A stretch of DNA of 64,000 nt, taken from NCBI GenBank assembly GCA_019310965.1, contig JAFDDG010000030.1:2390-66389 (forward strand). The letters are read 5' to 3'. Each line of letters begins with the position of its first letter. The stretch's first letter is position 1. Positions 13,980-56,934 of this stretch are shown here, one piece after another. A program made the position numbers and the translations under genes. Under the pieces are notes generated by a model. It was not told the origin of the DNA. It made no database searches and saw only the letters and a program-made list of their open reading frames with translations. The DNA comes from Deltaproteobacteria bacterium (GTDB taxonomy: Bacteria > Myxococcota_A > UBA9160 > SMWR01).

Positions 13980-14051
13980 GTCGGGAGGATAACTGCCCGA
14001 ATGCGGCGAGCAATTCCGTGCGCCGGATGTCGAGCCGTCCCTTCGACTCGC

Positions 14052-14516
14052 TCAGGCGTTCGCATTCCAGTCGGCGATCAGCGTCTCTATCGTGACGTCC
14101 ATCACGGGCTTCATGTCCTCGTCGTACAACTCGTAGAGGATCCCGTCGCTGGCGTGACAGCCAAAGAAGGCGATCCCGCCCTCGTCTCCCCCTCGCTCGA
14201 GGTGCGGCAGTGGCGCATCCACCGTCAGCGCGTAGTCGCCGGCGCATCGCACCTTGGGCTCGGCGCGAGTTCCGTCCGGATGGATGTCCCACAGATGCTG
14301 TTCGCCCTCGAACACGAGGACGGTCGTGGTCGCGATGTGTCGATGGACCGGGCAATGACCGCCGTCGCCCTCCCACCGCACCACCATGTCGAGGGTGCCG
14401 GCGGCCAGGTCGTGACCGAGGATCGTGTATTCGTGGCTCACCTTGTAGGAAAGCCCGGGGTCGCCCGTCACCTTCCGCCACTTGTGACGCGCGGGATCGA
14501 AGAAGCTCTGGGCCAT
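14052..14516 (-). CDS. Cupin-domain protein
   Basis: ATG 14516 with an aaggaggg RBS, inside ORF 14052..14561. HCPVHRHIATTTVLVFEGEQ resembles a cupin metal motif. Confidence 0.5.
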   Translation of the reverse strand: MAQSFFDPARHKWRKVTGDPGLSYKVSHEYTILGHDLAAGTLDMVVRWEGDGGHCPVHRHIATTTVLVFEGEQHLWDIHPDGTRAEPKVRCAGDYALTVDAPLPHLERGGDEGGIAFFGCHASDGILYELYDEDMKPVMDVTIETLIADWNANA

Positions 14517-14618
14517 TGCAGGACCCTCCTTGGTTGAATCGTCCGTTTCAGTCACGAGCACCGAGCGCCTTCGCTCCGTTGTCGACCGGGGGCGGCGAAG
14601 CGCTGCGGCGAACGGGCT

Positions 14619-16451: not shown

Positions 16452-16502
16452 GCCCTCGCCTTCTTAGTTTGTCGCCGGTCGGGCGACAATACCACGAACG
16501 GC

Positions 16503-28251: not shown

Positions 28252-30546
28252 TCAGCGAAGCGGTGTCGCGCCCCCGAGCATCGAGCGCGCAACGCCGTCG
28301 ATCTCGGCCGGCGCCATCACCTCGAGCTGCGGCAGAGCCGTGCCTGCGGGCACGCCAGCGGTGCGCGCGACGACGAGCCCAGCGCCGGGCGGCGTGCCCC
28401 CGCGGTGCACGACAAGACGTCTGGAGCGCAACTCCAGGACGAGCTGCCGGCCATCGACGAGTCGCGCCTGCGACAGACAGGTGATGCGGGGGATCGCTTC
28501 GCCGGAGGCCAGTGTGTAGCGGAGTGCAACCGACTGGCCCGCCGCCAGCCGCCACGAAGCGCGCAGCGCAACGCGGCGGCGCGGGAAGCGCAGCAGATGC
28601 TCGAGCTCGACGGCGCCCTGCCCCACCGCGCGCACCTCCAGCTCCACCTCGAGCCACTCGCCGGGCGCCAACGCCACCGGTGTGCCGTGGACGAGCTGCC
28701 AGCCGCGCCCGTCGACCACGAAGCGCGCGTCTCCGACGAGGGCCAGGGCCAGCTCCGGCTCGTCGGTGCCCGGCCCGCTCGCCGCCGCGACGTCCAGCGC
28801 GAGAGTCTCGAGCTCGGGACGCCGCGCCAGGGACCGCAACGTCGGCGCGAACATGCGACCGCTGAAGGCATCGAAGCCCGCGCAGTCAGCACCACCCTCG
28901 CTGCAATGCAAGAGGTAGCCGTCCGGCGCGAGTGCGCTCAGCGTGCGCAGGTTCACGTTGCCGAAGAACAGGTGGCGCCCGACGGCATAGCGGCGAAACA
29001 GGCTGCGCCCGTGCAAGCCATCGGCGGCAGCGGCCAACCCCAGGTAGTCGAGCACCGAGAGGGCGACGTCCGACTGCGCGTGGGGAACGTCGATCCGCTC
29101 GCGCTCACGCTCGGGCAACAACGCCGCGAGAAAGCCCCAGTTCTGGGTCAACTCCGCCGTCACGGTGTCCGACGTTCCGGGCCACAGGCCGGCCGCCTCG
29201 TCCGAGGTAATCAACACGAGCGTATCGTCACGCACACCGGCGCCTTCGAGCCAGACCAGGAACTCGCCGATGGCGCCATCGAGGCTGTCGAAGGCCGCTC
29301 CCGCGCCACCTCCGCCACCAGCCGTCGCCGGCACGACGTAGGGATGGTGCGTGCCGACGCTGAGCAGCGTCAGGAACCAGGGATCCGGCTCCGCGCGGAG
29401 CGCCTCGATCAGGCGCGTGGCACCCGCGAAGAACGAGCGATCGTCGACCCCCCAGAGCGTGCGCAGGGTGTAGTGCTCGAACCAGTCGGTGCCCAGCACC
29501 TGCTGGAAGCCAGCACGGGGCAAGAACTGATCCTTGGCCATGAAGGACAGGGGCGCCGCTTGCAGGTAGAGCGTCCGGTAGCCGCGTTCGCGCAGCCGTT
29601 CCGGCAGACAGCGCCGCCCGAGACCGCGCGAAGCTACCGTCATCTTGGGCAGACCCTGGATGAGACTCGGCATCTCGCCGCACAAGAGCGCATAGAGGCC
29701 GCGATCCGTGCGCCGGTTGTGATTCAGGAAAGTGGCGTAGCCGACGTTCTCGGCAAAGATCGCGTCGAGTCGCGGCAGGGGATGCGCGGCGCGCCGTCCG
29801 TGCGCCCGCGCCGCGGTCGCGAGGTCCGCTCCGGAGACCCCTTCCAGCACCACGAGCAGGACGTTGCGGCCCTCGCTGCCCAGCGCGAAGCGCGGCTCGC
29901 CGGAGAGATCGCCCAGCAGAGCGGGGTGGCGGGCGGCCAACCCACCGTCCTCCGCACCCGGAGCCGTGCGGCGGTTCGCGAGCCAGACCGCGTTCTGCGA
30001 GATCGCGTTGACCTGTCGCCAGGTCGCGATGCGCGCATCGCTCGCCGGGAGCGACGCGCCGCCGAGAAAGAGGAGGCTTGCGCCAACGATCGCCGCGACC
30101 GCGCGCGGACCCAGACCCGAGAACCCGTACCACGCCGCAACCCCACCGGCGCCCGTCAACGCGACCCATAGCAACGGACGCATTGGCGCCAGCACCGAGC
30201 CGCCAAAGAAGGTGGCGTCGCCGAGAAAGCCGGCATCTGCGAAGTTCACGACCGCGCGCAGCGCCCGCACCGTCTCGTAGTTCGCATAGTGAACACCCGT
30301 CAGCAGCACCACGCCCAGCAATGCAACGCTCCGGAGCCGCCGCGCCGGCCACCACAGGGCGCCGAGACACAGACCGGCCACGCCGACATCCGCCGCCAGG
30401 CCGCGCAAGTCGCCCCAGCCTGGCTCCGCTTCCACGTCGATGAGAGCGATGCCGCGCAACACCAGCGGAGCGGCCAGCAACGCCAGCCATGCGAGCGCCG
30501 CGGTTCCAACCGGCCGGTGCCCCTCGCGTGCCTGCCGTGCTGCCAC
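28252..30546 (-). CDS. LtaS/OpgB-like membrane phosphotransferase (alkaline-phosphatase superfamily) with about 270-aa C-terminal extension
   Basis: ORF 28252..30546, 764 aa. N-terminal TM bundle, then NVLLVVLEGVSG, NHNRRTDRGLYALLCGE and LSVGTHHPYVVP. It is a paralog of 38831..41164. Confidence 0.7.
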   Translation of the reverse strand: MAARQAREGHRPVGTAALAWLALLAAPLVLRGIALIDVEAEPGWGDLRGLAADVGVAGLCLGALWWPARRLRSVALLGVVLLTGVHYANYETVRALRAVVNFADAGFLGDATFFGGSVLAPMRPLLWVALTGAGGVAAWYGFSGLGPRAVAAIVGASLLFLGGASLPASDARIATWRQVNAISQNAVWLANRRTAPGAEDGGLAARHPALLGDLSGEPRFALGSEGRNVLLVVLEGVSGADLATAARAHGRRAAHPLPRLDAIFAENVGYATFLNHNRRTDRGLYALLCGEMPSLIQGLPKMTVASRGLGRRCLPERLRERGYRTLYLQAAPLSFMAKDQFLPRAGFQQVLGTDWFEHYTLRTLWGVDDRSFFAGATRLIEALRAEPDPWFLTLLSVGTHHPYVVPATAGGGGGAGAAFDSLDGAIGEFLVWLEGAGVRDDTLVLITSDEAAGLWPGTSDTVTAELTQNWGFLAALLPERERERIDVPHAQSDVALSVLDYLGLAAAADGLHGRSLFRRYAVGRHLFFGNVNLRTLSALAPDGYLLHCSEGGADCAGFDAFSGRMFAPTLRSLARRPELETLALDVAAASGPGTDEPELALALVGDARFVVDGRGWQLVHGTPVALAPGEWLEVELEVRAVGQGAVELEHLLRFPRRRVALRASWRLAAGQSVALRYTLASGEAIPRITCLSQARLVDGRQLVLELRSRRLVVHRGGTPPGAGLVVARTAGVPAGTALPQLEVMAPAEIDGVARSMLGGATPLR

Positions 30547-30569
30547 TGCGCGCGAGGATACCGCGCGCC

Positions 30570-31952
30570 TCAGCGCACGTACCCCAGCTCCCGCAGCGAA
30601 CGTTCGACGTCCGGGTCCATCTCGCCGCGCGGCGGCGGCAGCTCGGTGAGCGCAGTGCCGTGCTCCTCCAGGAGCGCGTTCAGTCTGCGCTCCAGCGCCT
30701 TCGCGACTTCGGGCTCGTCCGCCACGAGATTGCGCGTCTCGCGGGGATCGGCGACGACATCGTAGAGCTCGTGTCGCCCGTCGGAGCCCCAGATGAGCTT
30801 GTGCGGCCCGACCCGCAGCGAGCGGATGAGGCGGAGATACGGCGCCAGCGACGCGCCTTTGCGCGCCTCTTCGGGGAAGTAGGCGATGAACTGCTTCGGG
30901 TAGTAGTACTCGCCCACCACCGGGCGGTCCTGCGGCAGCGCCGCGGCCAGGAGATCGCTGCCCACGCCCGGGGCGCTCACCCCCGCGGCTGCAGCAACCG
31001 TCGCAAACACGTCGGTCAGCTGCACCGGCTCACTCCGACGCGTCCCGGCGCCCGCCCCACCGGGCGGGCGAATCGCCAGCGGTACCCGCAGCGTCGAGTC
31101 GTAGAGAACGAACGAGTGCCCCTGGTGGTCATTGTCGCCCAGGTTCTCGCCGTGATCCGAAACGGCAACGACGAGGCTCGCATCTTCGAGCCCGCGATCG
31201 CGCAGCATCCGCAACAGATTGCCCAAAGCCTGATCGACGGTCGCCACCTCGGCGTGATACAGGCGCTGGCGCAGCGGCAGGAGGCTCTCGTCGATCGAGT
31301 CGCGGTCGATGTACCAGTCAATCACACCGAAGTTCGCCTCTCCGCGCTCGGCCTTCGAGACGTCCGCCGAGACGAAACGCGCCTGCATCGACGCTGGCGC
31401 GTCGTAGGGCCAGTGCGGTTCGATGTAATTCACGAAGAGGAAGAACGGTCGCTCGTCCTGGCGCGCATCCAACCAGAGCTCAATGGCCTTGTTCGTGCGC
31501 GCCGCCTGCCCCGGTCCAGGCAGACGCCAGGCCTCCGCGACGTTCTCGAAACCCTGCGTCAGGTTCGCGCGATCTCCGACCCATGCGTTGTTCGAGAATG
31601 CGACGGTCTCGTAACCGGCGTCACCGAGCAGCTCGGCCAACGTCTCGTGTTCGCCGGCCAGATACTGACTCACCTGATTGGCACCGTGAGTCATCGGATA
31701 CAGGCCCGTGAAGAGCGACGCATGGGAGGGCACCGTCCAGCTCGAGGTGGCGAACGCATTCTCGAAGAGCACGCCGCTCGCCGCCAGGGCGTCGAAGTGC
31801 GGAGTCTTCGCCTCGGCGTAGCCGTAGGCCGAGAAGTGATCCGCACGCGTCGTGTCGAACACCACCATCACGACGTGAGGCCGCGCCGGAGCCCCACTGC
31901 AGCCCAGCGCCGCAGCCAGCCCCAGGACACAGGCCGCTTCGCCCCAGCGCAT
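30570..31952 (-). CDS. Sulfatase-fold lipoprotein with non-canonical T-x-P-x-H active-site motif
   Basis: ATG 31952 in ORF 30570..33467. The lipobox is LAAALGC. Recognisable strings are HVVMVVFDTTRADH, SSWTVPSHASLFTG and AVSDHGENLG. Confidence 0.75.
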   Translation of the reverse strand: MRWGEAACVLGLAAALGCSGAPARPHVVMVVFDTTRADHFSAYGYAEAKTPHFDALAASGVLFENAFATSSWTVPSHASLFTGLYPMTHGANQVSQYLAGEHETLAELLGDAGYETVAFSNNAWVGDRANLTQGFENVAEAWRLPGPGQAARTNKAIELWLDARQDERPFFLFVNYIEPHWPYDAPASMQARFVSADVSKAERGEANFGVIDWYIDRDSIDESLLPLRQRLYHAEVATVDQALGNLLRMLRDRGLEDASLVVAVSDHGENLGDNDHQGHSFVLYDSTLRVPLAIRPPGGAGAGTRRSEPVQLTDVFATVAAAAGVSAPGVGSDLLAAALPQDRPVVGEYYYPKQFIAYFPEEARKGASLAPYLRLIRSLRVGPHKLIWGSDGRHELYDVVADPRETRNLVADEPEVAKALERRLNALLEEHGTALTELPPPRGEMDPDVERSLRELGYVR

Positions 31953-33373
31953 CACGGAGCCATCCCGCGCACGAAGGGAAAGCCCGCGCCGCCGGTGGCC
32001 AGCAGATCGACGAGCAGCGGAAGATCCCGCGCCCAGGCGAGAAGCAGCCAAGCGGCCGTCGCCACGCAGAGACCCGCGGCCTGGTGATCGCACCGCAGGC
32101 GCTCGAGCGCGGCTTGGCGGCTCGTCACGAGCCATGCGCAGCCGAGCAGGAAGAACGGCCGCAGCGGCACGGCGTAACGCGAGAGCGAGTACGTGAGGCC
32201 GAAGAGCACGACGGCGTGCAGCAGCGCCATGAGCGCGATGCCACGGAGCGGCGAGGCTGGCTGGAGAATCAGGCCCGCGCTCCCGCCGGCGTAGAGCAAC
32301 GCAGTCCACAGGACACACCACACGGTGAGCAGCGCCGTCAGGGAGGGAGAAGATGCCACGCCGTACCAGTCGTTGCGCAGATGCCGCAGCACGAAGTTGT
32401 CGAGAGTGAAGAGGTGCACCGCCTCCCACAGAGACTTCCGCACGAAGCGGCCCGGCGCTTCGGCGATGCGCCGCCCGGCGCGGCGCAGCGCCAGGCGCTG
32501 TGCCGCGCCGGGGTCGCGCTCGGCGGCCACCATGTAGTGAAGATTGCCGATGGCAGCCCAGGCCGGGCTCCAGCGGTCGTCCTTGTCGACGCGATGCGCT
32601 CCCGGCTCGGTGCCGACCAGCACGTTGTAGGGCCCGTTGGTATCGACCAGAAAGAATGCGCCGGTCTGCCGCGCATTGCGCAACGACCAGGGCAACACCA
32701 CGGCACAGGTCGAGCAGGTCAGGGCGACGAAGGCGATCGCAGCCGGGCGCAGCTGAGCCGTTCCGCGCCGGCGGGCCACGAGCCAGGCCCAGGGCAGCAG
32801 CAGCGGCAAGAAAGTCAGGAGCTGCGGGCGCGCCAGAGCAGCCAGGCCAAAACACAAGCCGCCGACAGCCCAATGTGCCGGGCGCACGCGCCGTGCATCG
32901 AAGACGAGCGCGGCAATGCCGCCCAGCAAGAGCGCGATGTAGAGAGTCTCGGACCAGAGCAGGTGAGAGAAGCCGATCAGCACCGGGTCGAGAGCGAAGC
33001 CGAAGCCCGCGACCCTCGCCGCCACGCGACCCGAGAGCCGCTCTGCAAGCCATGCGATCGCAAAGACCGAAAGCGCGCCCAGCAGCGCCTGCACGGCTCG
33101 TACGGCGACCGCCCCGGGACCTAGCTCCACGAAGAACGACATGAACGCCGGATGCAGCGGCGGACGAAAATTCGACCCGAAGCCCTCCCCCCGCGCCAGT
33201 CCTTCCGCGAGTCGCCAGTAGTCGATCTCGTCGTTGACCGGCGTCGGGTCGGGGAACCACGCGACGAGACCGCCGCGCAGCAGCAGAGCGAGGCCGAACG
33301 CCCCGAGGATCCAGGGATCGCGCAGACAACTCGGATTGGCGGGACTCTCGACCGGCATGATGGGCACCGCCAT
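31952..33373 (-). CDS. GT-C fold glycosyltransferase (ArnT/PMT-like, GT39/GT83-type)
   Basis: ORF 31952..33397; start ATG 33373 or 33358. There are many TM helices. The first-loop motif is NDEIDYWRLAEGLARGEGF. Its stop overlaps the downstream ATG (TGATG). Confidence 0.65.
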   Translation of the reverse strand: MAVPIMPVESPANPSCLRDPWILGAFGLALLLRGGLVAWFPDPTPVNDEIDYWRLAEGLARGEGFGSNFRPPLHPAFMSFFVELGPGAVAVRAVQALLGALSVFAIAWLAERLSGRVAARVAGFGFALDPVLIGFSHLLWSETLYIALLLGGIAALVFDARRVRPAHWAVGGLCFGLAALARPQLLTFLPLLLPWAWLVARRRGTAQLRPAAIAFVALTCSTCAVVLPWSLRNARQTGAFFLVDTNGPYNVLVGTEPGAHRVDKDDRWSPAWAAIGNLHYMVAAERDPGAAQRLALRRAGRRIAEAPGRFVRKSLWEAVHLFTLDNFVLRHLRNDWYGVASSPSLTALLTVWCVLWTALLYAGGSAGLILQPASPLRGIALMALLHAVVLFGLTYSLSRYAVPLRPFFLLGCAWLVTSRQAALERLRCDHQAAGLCVATAAWLLLAWARDLPLLVDLLATGGAGFPFVRGMAP

Positions 33374-33435
33374 GGTAGCCGGCCCGCCGCGGCACAAGGG
33401 CTCTGGTATGATCGCCGACTCGACCGCACGAGGAG

Positions 33436-33651
33436 ATGAGGGCGTTGCCCGGCCTGCACGATTTCACGGCTCAGCGAAACGACGGCGATCTGCAGTCGCT
33501 CGGCGGCTGTGCCGGCAAGGTCTGCCCGATGGGGAAGGTCGCCTCGACGTTCCCGCTCGATGGACCGGCAGCCGCCGTGACGCGCTTCGAACCACCGGCG
33601 GAGCCCGGGGCGTCGGAGTTGCTGGCTGCCATCGAGTCCGCGCTCGGGTGA
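33436..33651 (+). CDS. Small ORF (71 aa) with faint SelD/PurM-N-terminal-like GCAGK motif; may be a gene remnant or non-coding
   Basis: ORF 33436..33651. Third-codon positions are G/C-rich like real genes. LQSLGGCAGKVCPMGKV weakly recalls the SelD motif GxGCxxKxxPxxL. Confidence 0.25.
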   Translation: MRALPGLHDFTAQRNDGDLQSLGGCAGKVCPMGKVASTFPLDGPAAAVTRFEPPAEPGASELLAAIESALG

Positions 33652-33673
33652 GCGGGCGCCGTCGCGCGCGACC

Positions 33674-35035
33674 ATGCCGGCGCGTCGCCTCGCCCCCTGG
33701 CTCGCTCTCGCGCTGCTCGCAGGAAGCGTGCGCTGGGGCGCATTCGAAACGGCGCAGCCCGTCGCGCTGCTGGGCGACGAGAACTACTACGTCGAGGTCG
33801 CCGACAATCTGGCGCGAGGACGCGGTCACCTCTACGTCGGCCAGCTGGAAGGCGAGGCGCGGGCCTGGCGCCCACCCGGCCACGCATGGTTGCTCTCGCT
33901 CGGCATCGACACGCAACGGCCGGCGCGAGAGGCGCCGGAGCTGGACACGGCCGTCGTCGCACGACTGCAGCGCTCGCAAATCTGGCTCGGCACCGCGCTG
34001 GTACTGCTCACCGCCGCGCTCGGCCGCTCGCTCTTCGACGCGCGCAGCGGCTGGCTGGCCGGCGGCCTGGCGGCGCTCTATCCGGCCCTGATTGCCCACA
34101 GCCACTATCTCTGGTCGGAAACCTGGTTCTCGGTTCAGCTGCTCGCTGCGCTGTGGGCGGCCGTCAAGACGGCGGAGCGGCCGGGCCCGGCGGGTGTGGT
34201 GGCCACGGGCCTCGCATTCGGTGTGGCGGCGCTGACCCGCGAGCAGGCGCTGGTGGCGGCGGCAGCCTGCGGGCTCTGGTGGCTCAGCGAAGCGGACGGG
34301 CGCCGCGCCGCACTCGTCCGCGCAACGGCCATGCTGGCTCTGGCCTTCGCGGTGACCCTGCCGTGGATGGCGCGCAATCACACGAGCTTCGGGCGCTGGA
34401 TCGGCATCTCGACGGTCGGCTGGTTTGCGGCGGCCGAGGGCAACAGCCTCGAGTCACCCGAGTGGTGGCGGCGCCGCGGCCCGGTGCAGGGCCAGTTTCA
34501 CGCCGACTACTTCTCGACGCGGAACGAGGGCGAGCGGCTCGACCTGGCACGCGAGCACGCTATCGCACGCATCGTGGCAGAGCAGCCGGCGTGGCTCTTC
34601 AAGAAGAGCGTCCGCAATCTGGCGCTTCTCGCGAACCCCGACTCCGTCGTTCGCACCAAGGTTCGCAACGGAGCCTACGGGGACCGCCCGGCAGCCCCGG
34701 CGCGCTGGCTCCTGGCCGCAAGCACGCCGGCCTGGCTCGCCCTGGCGAGCTGCGCGGCGCTCGGGATCGCCGCGTCCCGGGCGGGAGGACGTCGGCTCTT
34801 GGCAGTGCTGCTGCTGGGTGCGGTGGCCGCGCTTCACATTGCCACCAACGCCACACCACGCTTTCGCGTGCCGTGGCTGCCGCTGCTGTGCGTCTACGCC
34901 GCACACGCCGTCTGGCTGGGTCGCGGGCTCTTCGCCCGCCTCGACCGCCGGGGGCTCGCGGGCGCGGGCATCGCCCTCGTCTTCCTCTTCGGCGTCGCCC
35001 TGCCCTACTACTGGATGTGGGGCGGTCGGCCCTGA
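33674..35035 (+). CDS. GT-C fold glycosyltransferase (ArnT/PMT-like)
   Basis: ORF 33674..35035. The first-loop motif is GDENYYVEVADNLARGRG. It is polytopic, with a HYLWSETWF motif paralleling HLLWSETLY in 31952..33373. Confidence 0.65.
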   Translation: MPARRLAPWLALALLAGSVRWGAFETAQPVALLGDENYYVEVADNLARGRGHLYVGQLEGEARAWRPPGHAWLLSLGIDTQRPAREAPELDTAVVARLQRSQIWLGTALVLLTAALGRSLFDARSGWLAGGLAALYPALIAHSHYLWSETWFSVQLLAALWAAVKTAERPGPAGVVATGLAFGVAALTREQALVAAAACGLWWLSEADGRRAALVRATAMLALAFAVTLPWMARNHTSFGRWIGISTVGWFAAAEGNSLESPEWWRRRGPVQGQFHADYFSTRNEGERLDLAREHAIARIVAEQPAWLFKKSVRNLALLANPDSVVRTKVRNGAYGDRPAAPARWLLAASTPAWLALASCAALGIAASRAGGRRLLAVLLLGAVAALHIATNATPRFRVPWLPLLCVYAAHAVWLGRGLFARLDRRGLAGAGIALVFLFGVALPYYWMWGGRP

Positions 35036-35045
35036 GTGCCGATCG

Positions 35046-35636
35046 TCACTCGCCGCGCAGGTGCGCCGTCTCGTTCAAGCTCAACACGCTGCGCTCCCCC
35101 GAGCTGGCAGCCAGGTAGCGACTCACACTCGTGTATACCGGCTCGAAGAGAAAGAGGCGCTCGAGCCCGAGCAGGTGCGAAGTCCAGGCGTTGATGACGC
35201 CCCCGTGGCAGACCACAGCGACGCGAACACCCGGATGGGCAGCGATGATCCGCTCGAGCGCTGCGACCACGGTCGCGCGGAACGTCTCGGCTTCTCCTTC
35301 GAGATAGAAGCCGCTGCTGACGAGAGCCTTCCAACGCGCAGGGTCCTGCGCCTTCAGCTCTTCCAGCGGCACGTAGTGATCCGCCGCCGCATCGAACTCC
35401 GTCACCCCCACCTCGATACGCGCGTCGAGCCCGTGCACCGCCGCGACGGGCTGCGCGGTCTCGCGCGCACGTCGCAGGGGACTCGCGTAGAGCGCATCGA
35501 TGGGCTCGCCGCCGAGCCAGCGACCGAGCGCCGCCGCCTGGGAGCGACCCCGCGCCGACAGCGGCGGATCGGCGGCACTGCCATCGTCCGTGACCCGCCG
35601 GACGGGCAGGCCGTGGCGGATGAGGCAGAGCTGCAC
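35046..35636 (-). CDS. Histidine phosphatase family protein (phosphoglycerate-mutase-like)
   Basis: ORF 35046..35636. The catalytic RHG is in MQLCLIRHGLP, followed by LSARGRSQAAALG, SPLRRARETA and VVCHGGVI. Confidence 0.8.
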   Translation of the reverse strand: MQLCLIRHGLPVRRVTDDGSAADPPLSARGRSQAAALGRWLGGEPIDALYASPLRRARETAQPVAAVHGLDARIEVGVTEFDAAADHYVPLEELKAQDPARWKALVSSGFYLEGEAETFRATVVAALERIIAAHPGVRVAVVCHGGVINAWTSHLLGLERLFLFEPVYTSVSRYLAASSGERSVLSLNETAHLRGE

Positions 35637-35651
35637 TCCCGATCCCGGCGC

Positions 35652-36461
35652 TCAGTCGAGGTACATGCCGCCGTTGGCGGCGAAGACCTGTCCCGTCGTA
35701 AAACCGAAGAGCTTCGGGTCCGAGATCGCACAGATGGTGGCGGCGATCTCCTCGGGCTGCGCGATGCGCCCGACCAGGGTCATGCGCTCAAAGGCCCTGC
35801 GACCCTCTTCGGGAACCTGCGCGAGCATCGGCGTATCCACCGGCCCCGGCGCAATCGCGTTGACGCGCGCGCCGTAGCCGGAGAACTCGCGAGCGGTCGT
35901 GCGGGTGACTGCTTCGATGGCACCCTTGGCGGCGGTGTAATCGACTTGTCCGATGTTGCCGTTGCGCGCGCTCACCGACGAGAAATTCATGATGCAGCGG
36001 TTGACGCCATCGTCGAGCCGCTGGTTGCCATTCGCCTTGAAGAGCGGGTGCCAGTGCTGGTTCGCAACCTCTCGGGTGAACAGGAACGTGCCGTGCAGGT
36101 GCACCGCCACGACGGCCTTGAAGTCGTCGAGGGTCTTCTTCGTGATGCGCGCGTCGCGGGTAATGCCCGCCACATTGACGAGGCCATTGATGCAGCCACT
36201 GGCCTCCATCACCGTGCCGACGGCGCGCACCACATCCGCCTCTTCAGTGACGTTGGCCGCAACGGCCAGCGGCTCGACGGCGCCCTGGGCCTTGATCTCG
36301 TCGCGCACCTCCGCGACCCGGCCGGCGTCGAGATCGATCACTGCCACCTGGGCGCCGTGGGCGGCCAGCGCGGTCGCAACGCAGAGACCGATGCCCTGTC
36401 CGGCCCCCGTCACGATGTGGGTCTCGCCCTCGAAAGCTCCATCGCGCAGCCACCGCTCCAT
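35652..36461 (-). CDS. SDR family oxidoreductase (FabG-like)
   Basis: ATG 36461 in ORF 35652..36704. Recognisable strings are VTGAGQGIG, NVAGI and YTAAKGA. It lies 15 nt upstream of the phosphatase gene. Confidence 0.82.
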   Translation of the reverse strand: MERWLRDGAFEGETHIVTGAGQGIGLCVATALAAHGAQVAVIDLDAGRVAEVRDEIKAQGAVEPLAVAANVTEEADVVRAVGTVMEASGCINGLVNVAGITRDARITKKTLDDFKAVVAVHLHGTFLFTREVANQHWHPLFKANGNQRLDDGVNRCIMNFSSVSARNGNIGQVDYTAAKGAIEAVTRTTAREFSGYGARVNAIAPGPVDTPMLAQVPEEGRRAFERMTLVGRIAQPEEIAATICAISDPKLFGFTTGQVFAANGGMYLD

Positions 36462-36691
36462 ACACGCTCTCCTCTCCAGCCCGTCGCCGCGGGCGGGGGC
36501 GAAACATCGCGGATGAGGACCGCACACACAAGCCGCACACCGCGCGGCGAGCGCGCTGGGCCGCCCTCCCCCTGGGGGGAGCGGCGTCCATCGGGGTCCG
36601 CCGGGTTTGGGCTCCAGCGGCGCGCTATTCATTGGCTCCATTGCATCCCGGGCGGGGGAGCCGGTGGATGCGGCGGTGTGAGTTCCGAACG

Positions 36692-37327
36692 ATGCGATCC
36701 GCACGCCAATCTCGTCCTTCTCGCGGGCGGCGCTTCGCCGAGCGACTGCTCGCCGTGCTCGTCGCGTTGGATGCGGCCTTCGTGGTGTGGATCTGGCTGC
36801 ACGGCCCGTTCAAGCTCGACGTCGGCAGGCTGCCGTTCGGGATCGAGCAGGCGAACCCGCTGCACGTGCTCCCCGTGCTGGGGCTCGCATGGTGCGCGCT
36901 CACCTGGCGCAACCGGCGAAGCTGGCTTGGCCTGGCTCCCGAACACACCTTGCATCTGCGCGGCGTCCACCCGTTGGCATGGCTGATCCTGCCTCTGTCT
37001 GCGGCATTGCTCGGCGCCCAGCTGCTCGCGCCGCTGGTTCGAGGCCTCGTACAGCGCCCCTCACCGGAGCCGGTCGTCGTGTGGATCGACGACCTCGATC
37101 GCCGCGGCCATTCGGCGGCGTTCTACCTCTATCCGAGACTCATGTTGATGGAGCCCGCACAGCGACGCTGGACGCTCCAGCAGCGCATGACGGTACGCGG
37201 CGGCCCCAATCCGCACTTCCGGATCGGACACCGACCGTCGGAAGCCCGCTCCCGGGCCTTCGCCAAGGAACGCGGAGCCGAGCTCGTATTCGCAAAACGC
37301 GCGGGCGGGCAGCAAGCCAGTCCATGA
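36692..37327 (+). CDS. Hypothetical membrane protein
   Basis: ORF 36632..37327; start ATG 36692, 36668 or 36632. The TM segment is LLAVLVALDAAFVVWIWL. Its stop overlaps the next start (ATGA). No family recognised. Confidence 0.4.
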   Translation: MRSARQSRPSRGRRFAERLLAVLVALDAAFVVWIWLHGPFKLDVGRLPFGIEQANPLHVLPVLGLAWCALTWRNRRSWLGLAPEHTLHLRGVHPLAWLILPLSAALLGAQLLAPLVRGLVQRPSPEPVVVWIDDLDRRGHSAAFYLYPRLMLMEPAQRRWTLQQRMTVRGGPNPHFRIGHRPSEARSRAFAKERGAELVFAKRAGGQQASP

Positions 37328-38757
37328 GCGATAGCTGGGCACTGGGTCTCCTGATGTTCGCGATCCCCGCCGCGGGGTGGGCACTGCTCTGCCTGCTGCG
37401 CTGTCGCATCACCTCAGTGCCTCTGGGCTGGGCGCTGGCCGTGGCCGCGGGCTTCGCGGCGATCGCACTGTCTTCGTATCTGCCGTTCGTGGCAACGGGC
37501 AGAGTGACCTTCTGGCCCGCACTCGCAGTGGTCGCCGGCGGCGCCGTATGGACGCTCGGCAGCGCCATCGGCAGCTGGCGCCGCAGCGCGGCGCTGCTGC
37601 GCAACCCCTTCTGGGTCGGTCTGGCGGTGCTTGGCGTCGTTCTCGTTTTCTGTGCGCGCACAGCGCCCTTTTGGGGGTACGACGCCAAAGCCATCTACGG
37701 CATCAAGGCCAAGGCCCTGCTGCACGAGCGCAACCTGGAGGGGCCGATATTCCAGGATTCCGACGTAATCCACTATCACGCCGACTACCCGCTGGGTCTG
37801 CCACTCATCATGGCGTTCTCGGGCTGGGTGACGGCGGGCGATCCCGAGGACCCGACGGGCGCCGAGCCCGCGCTGACGATCGCCGGGTGGCTCCGGCGTC
37901 ACGGCTCGGTAAGCGCGTATTCGAGTGTCGCGTGCCTCTGGATCCTCGGGTTGCTGGGCTTCGTCGTCCACTGGGCCCGTGAGTGGACGAGCGGTCGCGT
38001 CCCCATCATCGCACTCAGCGCCATCGCGCTCCCCATCGCCGTCGTGTTTCCGTGGGTCGGGGGTCGCAGCTGGAGCCTCGAGGGCGCGGACATGCCGCTG
38101 GCGCTGACACTCGGCGCCTGCGCCTTCCTGCTGCTGGAAAACCTGCGCACCGCGAACCGCGGCGCCCTCGTAGCCGGCGTGGGTCTCGCAGCGGCCGCGA
38201 TGTTGCTCAAGAGCGAAGCGTCGATCGCGCTGGGTACCTTGCTCGCCGCGGCCGCCCTCTGCCACGGTCCGCGCAAGCTGTGGCGGCCGGCGCTGGCGGT
38301 GGTGCTGGGCGCCGGACTCGCCGGACTCGTCGCCGCGAGCCTCGCGGCGACGACGGCGGGCGCACCGTTCGATGAGCACTACGTCGCGGCCCTGGCCGAC
38401 ATGGACATGGCCCGACTGACACAGCGCGTGCCGCTGCTGCTGCAGTCCACCCGCAGCGTGCTCGAAAAGCGCGAGATGCTGCCTTATTGGGTCTTCGTAT
38501 TGTGCGTGGCAGTGCCGTGGTGCCTACGCTTCGGGGGCACCACGCGCGTCTGGGCGCTCTGGGTGCTGGGCCACTTATTCGCGACGCTGGCGGTCTTTCT
38601 CGTGACCCCGAACAGCGTCACCTGGCACGTCACCACAGCCTTGCCGCGCCTTTGGTGCCACGTGGCGGTCCCCGCCTCGGCCATCGTCGTCTGCACGGTC
38701 GCGAGCGCCTGGAGCCAGCTGGTGCGGGTCGCCGAGCCGCCGGCGCGCCCGAGCTAG
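37324..38757 (+). CDS. Polytopic membrane protein, possibly GT-C / polymerase-like
   Basis: ATG 37324 in ORF 36787..38757. I judged at least 10 hydrophobic segments by eye. A loop reads FWGYDAKAIYGIKAKALL. The function call is tentative. Confidence 0.45.
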   Translation: MSDSWALGLLMFAIPAAGWALLCLLRCRITSVPLGWALAVAAGFAAIALSSYLPFVATGRVTFWPALAVVAGGAVWTLGSAIGSWRRSAALLRNPFWVGLAVLGVVLVFCARTAPFWGYDAKAIYGIKAKALLHERNLEGPIFQDSDVIHYHADYPLGLPLIMAFSGWVTAGDPEDPTGAEPALTIAGWLRRHGSVSAYSSVACLWILGLLGFVVHWAREWTSGRVPIIALSAIALPIAVVFPWVGGRSWSLEGADMPLALTLGACAFLLLENLRTANRGALVAGVGLAAAAMLLKSEASIALGTLLAAAALCHGPRKLWRPALAVVLGAGLAGLVAASLAATTAGAPFDEHYVAALADMDMARLTQRVPLLLQSTRSVLEKREMLPYWVFVLCVAVPWCLRFGGTTRVWALWVLGHLFATLAVFLVTPNSVTWHVTTALPRLWCHVAVPASAIVVCTVASAWSQLVRVAEPPARPS

Positions 38758-38830
38758 CGGGCTGCTGAAATAGCTCGTCGCGCTTGGCCATGGTCGGGGG
38801 CGAAGGCGGTGTCGTGCTCATGCGCCGGAG

Positions 38831-41164
38831 TCAGAGCTCGCCTTCCGGATCCAACTCCTCTTCGTCGCGGAATCCCTTCTCGACCCGCCGCTGGAGATAG
38901 CCGGCGTGGTTCTCGATGGGCGTCACCGTGTACTGCATCCGCACCGGAGCGGAGGGAGGCGGATCCATCTCGATCCGGGCGAGCTGGATACCCTGGGGTG
39001 GGCGATCGCCGGCACGCTTGATCTCGAAGCGACGTTTGCGGAAGATGAGCTCCGCCTCACCCGGCTCGGCCAGCTTTGCACGAGTGCGCACGCTCGACCG
39101 CGTAACCGGAATGTCACTGGCCAGCGTGTAACGCAGCTTGAAGACCTGCTGCGGTTCGAGGTGGATCCACGACGTCAGCACGAACCGCTGCTTGCCAACA
39201 TTCACGCGATGGTTCAAGACGACGGGAGTCGGCCCGCGGGACTCTACCTCGATGTCGACCTCGACCCACTCGTCGGGTTCGATCGCGAGCTGGGAGACAC
39301 TCTGGACCCAGAGCCATTCCGGCTGAGGCACGGTGACCACGCGCTGCGCGATGAGCGGCACCTGCAGAGCCGCACTGGCGGTGGGCGGCAGGCTGCGTTG
39401 CCCCATGTCACGGACCGTCTCCGCAAAGCGCTCGTCGTCGTGGATCCGGCGCAGACGCGGACCGAAGATCTTGCCACCCGGTGCCTGGTAGTGCGCACAG
39501 CGCCGCCCCTCCTGCTTGCATTGTACGAGCGTACCGTCGGGCTTGAGCCCCCCCACCATGCGATCATTCAGATTGCCATAGAACAGGACGCGCCCGCGAT
39601 CGTACGTGCGGAAGATGCTGCGCCCGAAGAAATCCAGGCCCCGGTGATCGATCCCGAGGTAGTCGACCACGGACAGCGCAACGTCGCTCTGAGCGAACGG
39701 CTCTCCGACGACGCGCCGCTCGCGTTCCGGCAGCATGGCCACGAGAAAACCCCAGTTCTGACTCAGCAGGGCCGCGGTGCCATCCTCGAGTTCGCCAAAA
39801 CTGCCACGCGACTCGTCCGAGGTGACGAGAATCAACGTGTCTTCGCGCAGCCCCCGCGCGTCCAATGCCTGGAAGAATCTCATCAACGCATCGTCGAGAT
39901 AGGAGAACGCGCGGCGCACGTCCGTGCGGTACGGCGACTCGTAGGAAGGCGGAACGACGAACGGATGGTGCGTGCCCGCATTCAACAGGGTGAGGAACCA
40001 CGGCTCGTCGCGTGCCTCGAGCTCGTCGAGCTTCGTGAGTGCCTGCTCGAAAAAGGCGCGATCGTCGACGCCCCACTCCGTGCGATGATAGGCGCGTTGA
40101 AACCATCCATCGCCGAGCGTCTCGTCGAAACCTATCGCCGGCATGAAGCTGTCCTTCTGCATGAAACCGAGCGGAGCCGTCTGGAGATAAACGGTGTGGT
40201 AGCCGTGTGCGGCCAGCACGCCGGGCAGGCAACGGCGCCAGGGCCGGCCCGCCGCCACGGCCATCTTCGGCGTGCCCGCCAGCAGCCGCGGATACTCGCC
40301 ACAGAGAAGCGAGTACAGGCCGCGATTGGTGCGGCGGTTGTGCGTGAAGAAGGTGGCATAGCCGACGTTCTGGGCGAAGCGTTGATCGAGCAGGGGCATC
40401 CGATTGCGGGGGCTGCGCCCTTGATACTTCGCTGCCGTATCCAGGTAATTGCCCGACACCGACTCGAGCACGATCAGCAGCACGTTCTTTCCCCGACCGT
40501 CGACCGGAAAGGCGCGTGGCGCATCGAGATCGGCGCCGACAGCGGGAACCAGGTCACGCATCGCCGACACCGACGTGGCGAAATCGTTGGCATCGCTGCG
40601 CCCGGCCAGCCAGTCGGTGTTGTAGGCAATGACGTTCTCCTGACGCCATGTGGAGCGCGTCACGTCCACTGGCCACAGCAGCACGCCCCCGAGCAGAAAA
40701 CCGCCCAGCAAGAGCGGAGCCACGGCATCCCGGAGCGCCGCCGTTCTCAGACCCCAGGCTGCCAGCCCGAACGAGGCGAGCACCCCGGCAGCGAGTGCCA
40801 GCGGGTGCATCAGGGCGAGCGCCGAGCCTCGCACGAACGTCGGGGCGTCGAAGTACTTGAGGTCCAGAGGCGAAGCGATCATCCCCAGGGCCTGAACCGT
40901 TTCAAAGTTCGCGTAGTAGCCGAGTGCGAGCAACGCGGCGCACACCGCCGCCGGCCAGCGCGAGATGCGCCCCAACGACAAGAGGAACGCGAGCGTCAGC
41001 GCTGCGATCGCCGCATCGGCAACGAAACCCCGCAAGTCCGCCACGCCGACGACCGCTGACACTTCGGCCATGGCGAGCGCGCGGTAGGCCCAGGGCGCGA
41101 GCAGCACCGCAAGAACGGCTGCAGCGCGGCGCTTCGTCCTGCGTTCGTTCGGTCCGGGCGCCAC
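38831..41164 (-). CDS. LtaS/OpgB-like membrane phosphotransferase, paralog of 28252..30546
   Basis: GTG 41164 in ORF 38831..41389, chosen by alignment with the paralog N-terminus. Recognisable strings are NVLLIVLESVSG, THNRRTNRGLYSLLCGE and LNAGTHHPFVVP. A shared C-terminal string is LRYTLAS. Confidence 0.7.
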   Translation of the reverse strand: MAPGPNERRTKRRAAAVLAVLLAPWAYRALAMAEVSAVVGVADLRGFVADAAIAALTLAFLLSLGRISRWPAAVCAALLALGYYANFETVQALGMIASPLDLKYFDAPTFVRGSALALMHPLALAAGVLASFGLAAWGLRTAALRDAVAPLLLGGFLLGGVLLWPVDVTRSTWRQENVIAYNTDWLAGRSDANDFATSVSAMRDLVPAVGADLDAPRAFPVDGRGKNVLLIVLESVSGNYLDTAAKYQGRSPRNRMPLLDQRFAQNVGYATFFTHNRRTNRGLYSLLCGEYPRLLAGTPKMAVAAGRPWRRCLPGVLAAHGYHTVYLQTAPLGFMQKDSFMPAIGFDETLGDGWFQRAYHRTEWGVDDRAFFEQALTKLDELEARDEPWFLTLLNAGTHHPFVVPPSYESPYRTDVRRAFSYLDDALMRFFQALDARGLREDTLILVTSDESRGSFGELEDGTAALLSQNWGFLVAMLPERERRVVGEPFAQSDVALSVVDYLGIDHRGLDFFGRSIFRTYDRGRVLFYGNLNDRMVGGLKPDGTLVQCKQEGRRCAHYQAPGGKIFGPRLRRIHDDERFAETVRDMGQRSLPPTASAALQVPLIAQRVVTVPQPEWLWVQSVSQLAIEPDEWVEVDIEVESRGPTPVVLNHRVNVGKQRFVLTSWIHLEPQQVFKLRYTLASDIPVTRSSVRTRAKLAEPGEAELIFRKRRFEIKRAGDRPPQGIQLARIEMDPPPSAPVRMQYTVTPIENHAGYLQRRVEKGFRDEEELDPEGEL

Positions 41165-41261
41165 GCGGTCACGATAGCACCCGATGGGAAGAGCAAGCCC
41201 ACGCCAAACGTGCGCTCCGACATCGTGCGACACGATGGTGCCAGCGTTACCCTCCGACCGC

Positions 41262-42572
41262 ATGCAGGGCTGGGTTTCCGACGACGCGGCAGAGAGCGAG
41301 GCCGCACAGCAGCGGCTGCGGACGGCCATCCGCACGAACCGATGGATCATCGCCGCCCTCGTGGTGGCTGTGGCGTCGCCGCTCTTCATTCACTACACGG
41401 GCTTCAAACCGGCGAAAGAACTCTCGGGACTCACCTACCCGAAGATCTTCAAGTACTCGTATCGCACGACGCCGGGCCGGGCGCCGCATCACGGCATCGA
41501 CTTCAGCCAGATCTGGCTTTCGGCGGGCAGGCTGTCGGCGGGCCAGCCGGTCTACCATCCGGTCGACAAAGCGAAATGGCGACGGAGGTGGAGCTCCACC
41601 TACCACCCGGTCATCCACTGGCTCTACGTACCACTGGGCAGGGTCGCTTTTCCAACAGCTCTCGTCGTACACAACCTGGCGGGGATCGGACTGCTGTTGC
41701 TGGTTTCCGCCCTGGCGTTGCGCCGCGCCGGCTGCACGCAGGCAATCCCGAGCGTCCTCGTGGCAATCCTGGCGGCGATGTACCTGACCCCGGTTGGGCT
41801 CTTCCACCTGGAACGCGGGCAGCTGGACGTGTTCGTCGCTGCCTCCATCGTCTGTGTGGTGACCGCTTTCGTGCGTGGCGGTTCGGCCTGGGCGATCGCG
41901 GCTGGCGCGATCTCGATGCTCAAGGTACAGGCCTGGATCTTCGTGGGCTTTTTCTGGCTGGTGGCCGCCGCGCTCTGGGGTTTGCGCGATCGCAATGTCT
42001 GGTGGGTACCTGCCACCATCCTCGGCCTCAACCTGATCTTCCTGTATCAGGTGATCGACTGGGTGCCGTCGTTTCTCTACGTTGCGAACAATACGTCCTA
42101 CTTCGGTCCGACTTTCACGCGGATCCTTCCCAGATGGTTCGCGTTCGGCCTGCCGTTCGTCAGCACGGCCCTCGTGGGAGTGTGCGCCTACGCCGCGCTT
42201 GCGGCGCGCGGACAGCTCGCGGACACAGATGCGCGCCGACAGCTGCTGGCGCGCATCTCATTTCCCTTCGCCGCGGCGCTGACGTTGCAGACCGTCTGCG
42301 GCACACCCGTCACTCACGACTACCGCCTGATCGCATTGCTCGGCCTACTGCCGGTACTGGCAACCTGGTGCGCCCGAGGCGAAGGAGTGCCCGCGTGGTT
42401 GAGGCGCGCGAGCTGCATCGGATTCGGGTTGATGCTGATGTTCGCCCTGCGCGTCGCCCCACTGACGACACTCTCGTTTCTCAACGTCGCGCAGCTCCTG
42501 CTGGCCTTCTCGCTGTTGTTCTTGCTCGCGACGTTGACTCTGGCGGTCCGGCGCGGCACCACTTCTGCCTGA
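41262..42572 (+). CDS. DUF2029 / GT87-like polytopic glycosyltransferase
   Basis: ATG 41262 (alternative 41235) in ORF 41184..42572. The loop motif is GIDFSQIWLSAGRLSAGQPVY. There are many TM helices. Confidence 0.5.
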   Translation: MQGWVSDDAAESEAAQQRLRTAIRTNRWIIAALVVAVASPLFIHYTGFKPAKELSGLTYPKIFKYSYRTTPGRAPHHGIDFSQIWLSAGRLSAGQPVYHPVDKAKWRRRWSSTYHPVIHWLYVPLGRVAFPTALVVHNLAGIGLLLLVSALALRRAGCTQAIPSVLVAILAAMYLTPVGLFHLERGQLDVFVAASIVCVVTAFVRGGSAWAIAAGAISMLKVQAWIFVGFFWLVAAALWGLRDRNVWWVPATILGLNLIFLYQVIDWVPSFLYVANNTSYFGPTFTRILPRWFAFGLPFVSTALVGVCAYAALAARGQLADTDARRQLLARISFPFAAALTLQTVCGTPVTHDYRLIALLGLLPVLATWCARGEGVPAWLRRASCIGFGLMLMFALRVAPLTTLSFLNVAQLLLAFSLLFLLATLTLAVRRGTTSA

Positions 42573-51437: not shown

Positions 51438-51465
51438 GCTGAGCCCGGCGCTCTGGGGGCTCAGC
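51438..51465. terminator. Second hairpin, 9-bp perfect stem
   Basis: GCTGAGCCC-ggcgctctg-GGGCTCAGC. It overlaps the stop codon of the minus-strand gene. Confidence 0.4.
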
Positions 51466-56700: not shown

Positions 56701-56934
56701 GATGCCCTCGACGCCCTCGATCTCCTCCTCGATGCGGATCGTCACGGACTTCTCCACGTCTTCGGGCGAAGCGCCGGGATACACAACGGTGGCGGAGACG
56801 TAGTTGATCTCGAAATCCGGCCAGACGGACTGCTTGATGTAAGGAGCGGAGAGGAGCCCCGCGATGATGATCGCCATCATCAGCAGGTTGGCGGCGACGT
56901 GGTTCTCGGCGAACCACGCGATGGCCCGGTTCAC
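53718..56934 (-). pseudogene. RND (AcrB/HAE-type) efflux transporter, reading frame broken by a 16-bp tandem duplication
   Basis: GTG 56934 overlaps the MFP stop (GTGA). The N-terminal 655 codons lie in the frame of ORF 54388..57321. After 54954 the AcrB-like sequence continues in the frame of ORF 53718..54797. Removing one 16-bp copy gives one continuous 1066-aa product. Confidence 0.85.
54938..54969 (-). repeat. Exact 16-bp tandem duplication (gene sense GCCTCGGACATCGCGG x2)
   Basis: Plus strand ccgcgatgtccgaggc occurs at 54938..54953 and again at 54954..54969. Confidence 0.95.

Follow-up and report, generated by a model that had tools for sequence, protein, structure and literature searches.

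In Gram-negative bacteria, lipid A and periplasmic glucans are decorated by ArnT (with ArnB and ArnC), EptA and OpgB, of which ArnT and EptA both act on lipid A and OpgB exists in both a membrane-bound and a soluble periplasmic version. In enterobacteria, arnT, eptA and opgB are found at separate loci. Glycosyltransferases of the GT-C fold accept lipid-linked donors only and work on the outer side of the membrane (PMC9574508). Phosphatidylglycerol is the source of the glycerol phosphate that LtaS-family enzymes transfer (PMC9574508; PMC8035078). Both types of enzyme occur in the machinery for the streptococcal group A carbohydrate, which comprises GacI/J (a GT-A enzyme and its activator), GacK (flippase), GacL (GT-C) and GacH (LtaS-family glycerol phosphate transferase), with GacL and GacH decorating one polymer (PMC9574508). 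Synthesis and glycosylation of lipoteichoic acid (LTA) involve LtaS together with three further components, a CsbB-type GT2 enzyme, a GtcA flippase and a YfhO-type GT-C enzyme (PMC8035078). In mycobacteria, PimE (family GT87) is a polyprenyl-phosphomannose-dependent mannosyltransferase, whose catalytic base D58 is located at the tip of the first juxtamembrane helix (PMC12041525). Here, a 14-kb locus (positions 28252-42572) that encodes GT-C and LtaS-like enzymes together is described in a 64-kb stretch of DNA, referred to below as the window, from an uncultured marine, diderm myxobacterium. An initial annotation had stated that no described system of this composition was known to its author. 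This was overstated, since the pairs GacL/GacH and YfhO-type GT-C/LtaS, each acting on one polymer, have been described (PMC9574508; PMC8035078).

The centre of the locus is an operon of three genes, encoding a GT-C enzyme of the PMT_2 family, an alkaline phosphatase (AP)-superfamily enzyme with a threonine at the nucleophile position and an LtaS-like membrane protein. This trio was found to recur across Myxococcota. The remaining GT-C and AP-superfamily genes are either paralogues of these or accessory genes that vary between relatives.

Gene content and the three-gene operon

At a G+C content of ~69%, the raw list of open reading frames (ORFs) in the window was full of spurious frames, and genes were resolved by third-position GC profiling. 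This procedure yielded exactly ten genes in the locus, with orientations - - - + - - + + - +, and so confirmed the ten alternating genes of the initial annotation. They encode four predicted GT-C-fold glycosyltransferases, three AP-superfamily enzymes, a histidine phosphatase, a short-chain dehydrogenase/reductase (SDR) and a small membrane protein. The chosen starts of g8, g9, g10 and g1 were exactly those of proteins P0026, P0035, P0001 and P0081, annotated by NCBI in a 'Deltaproteobacteria bacterium' metagenome-assembled genome (MAG). Families were assigned with Pfam, for which the gathering score of PMT_2 is 26.1 bits. Because Kyte-Doolittle profiles undercount the Ala/Gly-rich helices of these high-GC proteins, counts of transmembrane (TM) segments were not used. 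The features of the locus are:

g1, 28252-30546, minus strand: LtaS-like membrane phosphotransferase (predicted), 764 aa; Sulfatase PF00884, 4e-20
g2, 30570-31952, minus strand: secreted or lipoprotein AP-superfamily enzyme, 460 aa; PF00884, 1e-46
g3, 31952-33373, minus strand: ArnT/PMT-like GT-C, ~473 aa; PMT_2, 1.4e-9, 38.8 bits
GSHPx remnant, 33445-33648, plus strand: in the divergent spacer between g3 and g4; found by tblastn
g4, 33674-35035, plus strand: second ArnT/PMT-like GT-C, 453 aa; PMT_2, 3.8e-5, 24.4 bits
g5, 35046-35636, minus strand: histidine phosphatase (branch 1); His_Phos_1, 2e-34
g6, 35652-36461, minus strand: FabG-like SDR; adh_short_C2, 9e-46
g7, 36632-37327, plus strand: small membrane protein, ~210-231 aa, start uncertain; no Pfam match
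g8, 37324-38757, plus strand: polytopic protein with a predicted, divergent GT-C fold, 477 aa; no Pfam match
g9, 38831-41164, minus strand: second LtaS-like membrane phosphotransferase (predicted), 777 aa; PF00884, 8e-30
g10, 41262-42572, plus strand: PimE/GT87-like GT-C by predicted fold, 436 aa; no Pfam match

All seven GT-C and AP-superfamily genes detected in the scanned parts of the window fall inside these 14 kb. Genes g3, g2 and g1 form one operon, with g3 first and g1 last: the ATG of g2 shares 1 nt with the stop codon of g3, and 23 nt separate g2 from g1. The protein encoded by g3 scored 38.8 bits against PMT_2, above the gathering score, and 15.6 bits against the ArnT equivalog, which has a cut-off of 567 bits. 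Its first loop carries an invariant D48-E49-x-x-Y52 motif, and an HLLWSETL motif was kept across orthologues and distant relatives. Its paralogue g4, at 24.4 bits, fell just under the PMT_2 gathering score; the g4 orthologue in a related locus (related loci are denoted by L and a number), L002, is recorded with PF13231, and a distant relative in L025 reached 35.4 bits. Residues D35, Y39 and E149 are invariant in g4, the last of these in the LWSE motif that is common to g3. The motif Ser-His-x-Leu-Trp-Ser-Glu is common to the two paralogues, and the first loop of each contains an invariant acidic residue. The description of both as ArnT/PMT-like GT-C enzymes was upheld, and the three loop motifs quoted in the initial annotation were present verbatim in the translations. 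In a Pfam search, no MIR or other PMT-specific domain was found in the GT-C proteins of the locus.

The second gene of the operon, g2, had been annotated as a sulfatase-fold lipoprotein. The fold was retained, as g2 aligned best to structures of arylsulfatases and phosphonate-monoester hydrolases, and three orthologues have kept a lipobox-type Cys behind the signal sequence, which makes g2 a probable lipoprotein. Sulfatase chemistry did not hold. In an alignment to the sulfatase 4upi, g2 reads T-V-P-S-H, with Thr aligned to the formylglycine residue and His to the Arg, in place of the Cys/Ser-x-Pro-x-Arg formylglycine motif (SulfAtlas family S1). The same Thr was found in every g2-like gene that adjoins an LtaS-like gene. 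Since sulfatases need Cys or Ser at this position, sulfatase chemistry was excluded for g2.

The third gene of the operon, g1, is identical to P0081, while g9 is identical to P0035, annotated as 'LTA synthase family protein'; the two are 42% identical to each other. Both combine an N-terminal multi-TM anchor with an extracytoplasmic AP domain, the arrangement of LtaS/OpgB-type enzymes. In g1, an N-terminal TM region is followed by the AP-superfamily domain and by a C-terminal domain of ~190 aa. PF00884 spans residues 227-456 of g1 and residues 301-532 of the scanned 852-aa ORF of g9 (~226-457 of the 777-aa protein), in each case after the hydrophobic N-terminus. A profile built from 34 members of the g1/g9 family, when compared with solved structures, matched the ectodomains of LtaS, LtaP, YfnI and VP1736, in agreement with the annotation of two LtaS/OpgB-like phosphotransferases. 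Residues E234, the nucleophile T279, a GTHHP motif and D450-E451 (numbering of g9) are invariant in the family. In LtaS, the catalytic and metal-binding residues are E255, T300, D475 and H476. Further invariant residues are the cysteines C288/C312 and C549/C556, pairs whose conservation suggests periplasmic disulfides. The ~190-aa C-terminal domain is conserved in the family; a hidden Markov model (HMM) of it matched g1 residues ~570-750 and, beyond that, LtaS-like ORFs only. Because the GT-C proteins of L054 and L069 also carry a C-terminal extension, a shared acceptor-binding domain was considered and ruled out (blastp E > 1). As read from their sequences, all three PF00884 proteins (g1, g2 and g9) are predicted phosphoryl-transfer enzymes.

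For g7, g8 and g10, no Pfam family was matched even at E-values up to 10, and for g7 there was no NCBIfam match either. An AlphaFold2 (AF2) model of g8 (pLDDT 77, pTM 0.84) gave STT3A, Pmt4, AglB and EmbB as top Foldseek matches in the PDB (probability 0.6-0.99, TM-score ~0.4, E-value 0.08-0.7). Nine close homologues of g8 were found, and a profile search reached 801 relatives; among the 38 relatives sampled, 16 matched PMT_2 and two matched PMT. An Asp (D120) is invariant in a GYDAK loop, which the positive-inside rule places outside the cytoplasm. As judged from the model and from these relatives, g8 is probably a divergent GT-C enzyme, the fourth of the locus; the initial annotation had listed it as a further polytopic protein and had accordingly counted one GT-C enzyme fewer. 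In g3, g4 and g8 alike, an acidic motif is thus found in the predicted first extracytoplasmic loop of a polytopic protein.

A homologue of g7 (247-249 aa) precedes every g8 homologue examined (L005, L006), abutting it or overlapping it by 1-4 nt. This arrangement is consistent with g7 being a translationally coupled protein that may act as partner or activator of the GT-C enzyme g8. Conserved motifs (DxRGH...YPRL...RMT) are present at the C-terminus of g7. In L005 (6904-9089) and L006 (9261-11443), the g7-g8 module is located in unrelated genomic contexts.

For g10, 25 homologues were found, all from uncultured Myxococcota or 'Deltaproteobacteria', in which an HG-I/L/V-DFSQ motif that follows the first helix is invariant, including D80 of HGIDFSQ. 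PF09594 (GT87) was not matched by g10 itself even at E-values up to 10 and was matched weakly by two of the 25 homologues. The best PDB matches of its AF2 model (pLDDT 85, pTM 0.88) were PimE structures 9dm7 and 9dm5 (probability 1.0, TM-score 0.48-0.55, 14-15% identity), followed by PIG-M, ArnT and ALG3. These matches came from fold comparison alone; a profile of the g10 family gave none against PDB sequences. The earlier assignment of g10 as DUF2029/GT87-like was therefore retained on the basis of the predicted, PimE-like fold and not on that of its own Pfam score. A first-loop Asp accompanies the PimE-like fold; D80 may be the counterpart of D58 of PimE, which also lies in the first extracytoplasmic loop.

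Conserved core, accessory genes and recurrence of the trio

The genes g1-g2-g3, g4, g5-g6 and a g9-like gene are syntenic in L002, L013 and L014, with 45-86% identity. The initial annotation had named a lack of synteny in relatives as a ground for refutation; for the core, synteny was thus present. In L002, a Logan assembly in which g10 is 67-70% identical, the order is g1-g2-g3-[GSHPx]-g4-g5-g6-g9-g10, without g7-g8. In L013 (XB_MAG17) and L014 (ETNP8_MAG_7), the genes are arranged as g9-like / g6-g5 / g4 / g3-g2-g1 beside the same anchor of OB-fold, iPGM and MatE genes as in the window, and both g7-g8 and g10 are missing from the core position; XB_MAG17 has a g10 homologue on a different contig, among unrelated neighbours (L001). 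L004 has kept g5-g6-g10 and the anchor, lacks g9 and has an extra PMT_2 gene. Orthologues of g1 were present in L002, L013 and L014, and a positional homologue of g9 was found in L002 (68-69% identity) and in L013 and L014 (45%).

These comparisons indicated that the locus is not one ten-gene system, as the initial annotation had it. The conserved core consists of the operon g3-g2-g1 and the paralogues g4 and g9, whereas g7-g8 and g10, which the closest syntenic genomes lack or have at another place, are accessory. The content of the slot between g6/g9 and the OB-iPGM-MatE anchor also varied: it holds g10 in the window; g10, an amidohydrolase, a TetR and a PMT_2 gene in L004; and genes for an outer membrane protein (OMP), a cyclase, a GT2, a DegT and a GFO protein in L014. 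The region is interpreted as a lineage-specific accumulation of extracytoplasmic envelope-modifying genes around g3-g2-g1.

The histidine phosphatase g5 and the SDR g6 had been reported to lie 15 nt apart, which is the distance from the g6 stop to the g5 start. The proposal that all catalytic domains of the locus are periplasmic did not extend to these two proteins, which have no signal sequence. The g5 protein has an RHG motif at its N-terminus; its exact sequence was not found on record in a look-up, and it is 65-73% identical in L002, L004, L013 and L014. FabG models gave g6 177 bits, below their cut-off, and g6 is 76-86% identical in relatives and thereby far more conserved than the envelope genes (65-86% for g5/g6 versus 45-68%). 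Both are probably cytoplasmic, syntenic bystanders. At the position where L002 and L013 have an intact GSHPx (glutathione peroxidase) gene, tblastn with these genes recovered a remnant in the window, with only residues 1-34 and 130-162 recognisable and residues ~35-129 deleted.

In a scan for LtaS-like genes that included one genome per GTDB species, 266 relatives were found, mainly in Myxococcota with some in MAGs of Acidobacteriota and Gammaproteobacteria, and often with several per genome; 76 loci were kept. A PMT_2-type GT-C gene was present near the LtaS-like gene in ~30 of the 76. The trio of PMT_2 GT-C, Thr-type AP enzyme and LtaS-like protein recurred in three gene orders, in ~26 further loci from Myxococcota. 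In L069, one operon encodes an LtaS-like protein, a Thr-type AP enzyme, a PMT_2 protein, a TPR protein and a protein of 522 aa, and is preceded by a GT2-methyltransferase fusion; in L054 and L025 the LtaS-like gene is directly beside a PMT_2 gene. In a further arrangement, referred to as type C, the LtaS-like gene is convergent with genes for a PMT_2 protein (557 aa) and then a membrane-anchored AP enzyme with Thr (666 aa). This arrangement was found in L057 (10049-15873) and in 21 further loci (L038, L042, L047-L050, L053, L055, L058, L059, L061, L062, L064, L066-L068, L070, L072, L077, L081 and L082), from Polyangiales, Sandaracinaceae and other Myxococcota MAGs, among which the PMT_2 protein is 69-86% identical. 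HMMs of the narrow GT-C families missed the type C PMT_2 genes, which were recovered with Pfam and with tblastn using the L057 proteins. These results indicated that the trio is a self-contained module, and its three independent gene orders pointed to functional coupling rather than an inherited neighbourhood. A literature search for the module in Myxococcota or Gram-negative bacteria gave nothing relevant, and no paper on the type C module.

Candidate genes for a sugar donor were found beside the core in one relative. In L014 (6330-9167), the variable slot encodes a GFO/IDH/MocA dehydrogenase with UDP-GlcNAc 3-dehydrogenase as best match, a DegT aminotransferase with ArnB as best match (1e-74), and a 244-aa GT2 protein for which every best match is a polyprenyl-phosphate glycosyltransferase (ArnC, PgfS, AglJ, PpgS). 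With scores that were all below the equivalog cut-offs, the three genes look like a polyprenyl-phosphate aminosugar donor pathway. The same slot also contains the OMP beta-barrel and cyclase genes. A tblastn search of the window with the L014 GT2, DegT and GFO proteins found no counterpart. An ArnC-like GT2 gene was located near the core in L014 only, the other nearby GT2 gene being the methyltransferase fusion upstream of the L069 operon.

The flanks of the locus in the window are unrelated to it, with a dCache-HAMP-GGDEF cyclase on one side and the OB-fold protein, iPGM and MatE transporter on the other. Further away, ~16 kb from the locus, a PAP2-family phosphatase is encoded at 58940-59839 (plus strand); the PAP2 family includes undecaprenyl-pyrophosphate and lipid A phosphatases. 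An RND (AcrB-type) pump gene at 53718-56934 (minus strand), which adjoins an HlyD-type adaptor gene at 56931-58172, aligns to no more than positions 4-586 of the Pfam profile, which has 1021 positions, and its 3' part is overlapped by a second ORF with high third-position GC in a different frame (53718-54971). This could be a frameshift, either from an assembly error or in a pseudogene. A run of oxygenase genes at 12224-18158 (minus strand) includes a luciferase-like monooxygenase, an FMO/Baeyer-Villiger-type monooxygenase (610 aa) and a fusion of a cytochrome P450 with a C-terminal 4Fe-4S ferredoxin domain (551 aa). Two large proteins with a strong coding signal had no Pfam match, one of 1084 aa (1628-4882, plus strand), directly downstream of a TonB-C-domain protein, and one of 707 aa (51461-53584, minus strand).

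Proposed function and alternative explanations

GT-C enzymes take lipid-linked donors and LtaS-family enzymes transfer glycerol phosphate (PMC9574508; PMC8035078), and on these grounds a periplasmic decoration system was proposed. At the periplasmic face, the locus would add polyprenyl-phosphate-derived sugars and phospho-alcohols to an envelope glycoconjugate, a proposal to which an even chance is given and which, having been put forward in similar form in the initial annotation, remains the best reading. Support comes from four proteins assigned to GT-C on the basis of HMMs, fold or both, all of which have a conserved acidic residue in their first extracytoplasmic loop, from the AP-superfamily enzymes with their Thr nucleophile, from the operon structure, from the synteny of the core and the recurrence of the trio, from the candidate donor genes in L014 and from the precedent of GacL and GacH. 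From the families, folds, catalytic motifs, operon structure and gene neighbourhoods described above, we infer which donors and acceptor are used and in what order the steps occur. A polyprenyl-phosphate sugar would be made and flipped by genes elsewhere in the genome, and a GT-C enzyme would then move the sugar onto an envelope acceptor at the periplasmic face. Subsequently, the Thr nucleophile of the LtaS-like enzyme would pass a head group of the phospho-alcohol type, with phosphatidylglycerol-derived glycerol phosphate as the most plausible candidate, to the same glycoconjugate, on which the soluble or lipid-anchored g2 would trim, relocate or add a second phospho-substituent. Further or strain-specific decorations would be added by g4, g9, g7-g8 and g10.

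Several observations weigh against this proposal. Among the window genes scanned there was no GT2, donor-synthesis gene or flippase, which extends the earlier statement that the locus has no GT2 or flippase gene; the donor therefore cannot be read from this window, and the combination of GT2 and GtrA/Wzx flippase beside GT-C that marks multi-component transmembrane glycosylation was not seen among the genes scanned. The locus comprises six or more transcription units, whose orientation alternates, and no common operator motif was found when three divergent promoter regions were compared. The sole long word common to these regions, a 14-mer considered as a shared operator candidate, lies inside the g7 coding sequence and was judged to be a chance match. 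Neither g7-g8 nor g10 is conserved at this position in syntenic genomes, and the central-metabolism genes that flank the type C loci give no hint of a pathway. At the active site of the LtaS-like proteins, Asp-Glu (D450-E451) occupies, in 34 of the 34 aligned members, the place of the Asp-His metal-ligand pair of LtaS/EptA-type enzymes, so that activity and donor could differ from those of LtaS. NCBIfam equivalog scores were without exception far under the cut-offs (45.7 versus 572 bits for OpgB, the best, and 19-40 versus 970 bits for LtaS), which makes g1 and g9 relatives within the family and not orthologues. Finally, the acceptor cannot be named from genes alone.

Some of these observations are shared with a different explanation, that the region is a genomic hotspot in which independent envelope enzymes with different acceptors have gathered in a variable slot and are linked by neighbourhood only. 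Consistent with this explanation, orientations alternate over at least six transcription units, the slot from g6/g9 to OB-iPGM-MatE differs in content per relative, g7-g8 is found in unrelated contexts (L005, L006), the LtaS-like family is rich in paralogues (ETNP8_MAG_7 has at least six copies) and the decayed GSHPx gene marks a region in flux. However, g3-g2-g1 are translationally coupled or nearly so, and the trio occurs in three independent gene orders across Myxococcota, which chance accumulation does not predict. The hotspot explanation is considered unlikely.

A lower probability is given to a specific version of the proposed model, modification of lipid A or the lipopolysaccharide (LPS) core, in which g3 and g4 would add aminosugar to lipid A phosphates or the core in the manner of ArnT, and g1 and g9 would transfer head groups to LPS as EptA/OpgB-type enzymes. 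ArnT and EptA are known to work together on lipid A, the myxobacterial host is diderm, PMT_2 is the ArnT/PMT family, g3 matched the ArnT equivalog weakly, and ArnB-like and ArnC-like genes are located beside the L014 core. That weak match, however, amounts to 15.6 of the 567 bits at the cut-off, g1 and g9 resemble LtaS/OpgB and not EptA, with no match to an EptA-type N-terminal domain, and lpx and waa genes were absent from the neighbouring genes that were examined, both in the window and in related loci.

Protein O-glycosylation, in which PMT_2-type GT-C enzymes would act on proteins of the periplasm or outer membrane, perhaps on the AP enzymes encoded next to them, like PMTs and streptococcal PgfM-type enzymes, is regarded as very unlikely. 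PMT_2 and PMT are families of protein O-mannosyltransferases, STT3 and Pmt4 were among the best fold matches of g8, and the L014 GT2 protein also matches PgfS. PMT_2, however, covers ArnT-like lipid and glycan transferases too, MIR and other PMT-specific domains were not found, and the conserved pairing with two phosphotransferase-type enzymes would be left unexplained. A catabolic sulfatase cluster for sulfated marine polysaccharides, suggested by three PF00884 'Sulfatase' matches and by marine relatives, is effectively refuted by the Thr nucleophile in all three proteins (none of the three has Cys/Ser-x-Pro-x-Arg). In addition, g1 and g9 are membrane-anchored and LtaS-like, and neither the locus nor the genes directly flanking it yielded a glycoside hydrolase, a SusCD/TonB uptake gene or a sulfatase maturase.

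Within the periplasmic decoration model, the trio, the Asp-Glu site and the C-terminal domain might together represent an unrecognised, Myxococcota-wide pathway for a glycerophosphate-containing (teichoic-acid-like) glycopolymer or a phosphoglycolipid, expanded in the lineage of the window into a multi-paralogue, strain-variable locus for surface diversification. This extension is speculative and is considered improbable; we know of no evidence of a poly-glycerophosphate polymer in Myxococcota. Members of this phylum are social predators with complex surfaces, and envelope decoration by GT-C and LtaS/EptA-type enzymes governs charge, susceptibility to antibiotics and phages, and interactions with hosts and prey where it has been studied. 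If the decoration model is correct, a major diderm phylum has an unrecognised phospho-glycan modification, any cultivable myxobacterium that carries the module offers a compact three-gene target, and the LtaS-like family, which is large, abundant in paralogues and unusual in its Asp-Glu metal site, merits biochemical study. If it fails, the region is a variable neighbourhood of uncharacterised envelope enzymes.

Comparison with known systems

As in the Gac system, a GT-C enzyme and an LtaS-family enzyme are encoded together in the locus. In the Gac system both enzymes act at the outer face on one glycopolymer, with the sugar taken from a polyprenyl-phosphate and the glycerol phosphate from a phospholipid. 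In contrast to the Gram-positive Gac system, the host is a diderm myxobacterium, and a search of the locus gave neither a GT-A gene nor a flippase. The locus furthermore adds the Thr-type soluble AP enzyme g2, has four predicted GT-C enzymes and two LtaS-like paralogues, and its LtaS-like proteins have an Asp-Glu pair and a ~190-aa C-terminal domain. The two systems show no sequence orthology.

The pair of LtaS-type and GT-C enzymes also resembles the LTA system, whose enzymes act on one extracytoplasmic glycerophosphate-containing molecule, and the g1/g9 profile matched LtaS, LtaP and YfnI. The locus differs from the LTA system in the low LtaS scores (19-40 versus 970 bits), in the Glu that replaces His at the metal-ligand position and in its GT-C enzymes, which are PMT_2/ArnT-like and do not belong to the YfhO family.

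With the Arn, Ept and Opg enzymes the locus has in common a diderm host, the combination of PMT_2/ArnT-type GT-C with Thr-nucleophile AP-superfamily enzymes of the head-group-transferase type and, beside the L014 core, ArnB- and ArnC-like genes; the membrane and soluble forms of OpgB recall g1 and g2. Unlike arnT, eptA and opgB, the genes of the locus are clustered as a trio, and equivalog scores for ArnT and OpgB were far under the cut-offs.

The mycobacterial analogy of the initial annotation applies to g10 alone, through its PimE-like predicted fold, its invariant Asp in the first extracytoplasmic loop and the two homologues that match PF09594. In contrast to PimE, to which it is 14-15% identical, g10 fails the Pfam model, belongs to a narrow family (25 matches), lies outside the conserved core and has no genes of a phosphatidylinositol mannoside (PIM) pathway nearby. 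Taken together, pairing of GT-C with LtaS-family enzymes was known from these systems, and what is new in the myxobacterial locus is the recurrence of the trio, the Thr nucleophile of g2, the Asp-Glu site of the LtaS-like proteins and, in one relative, the ArnB- and ArnC-like genes beside the core.

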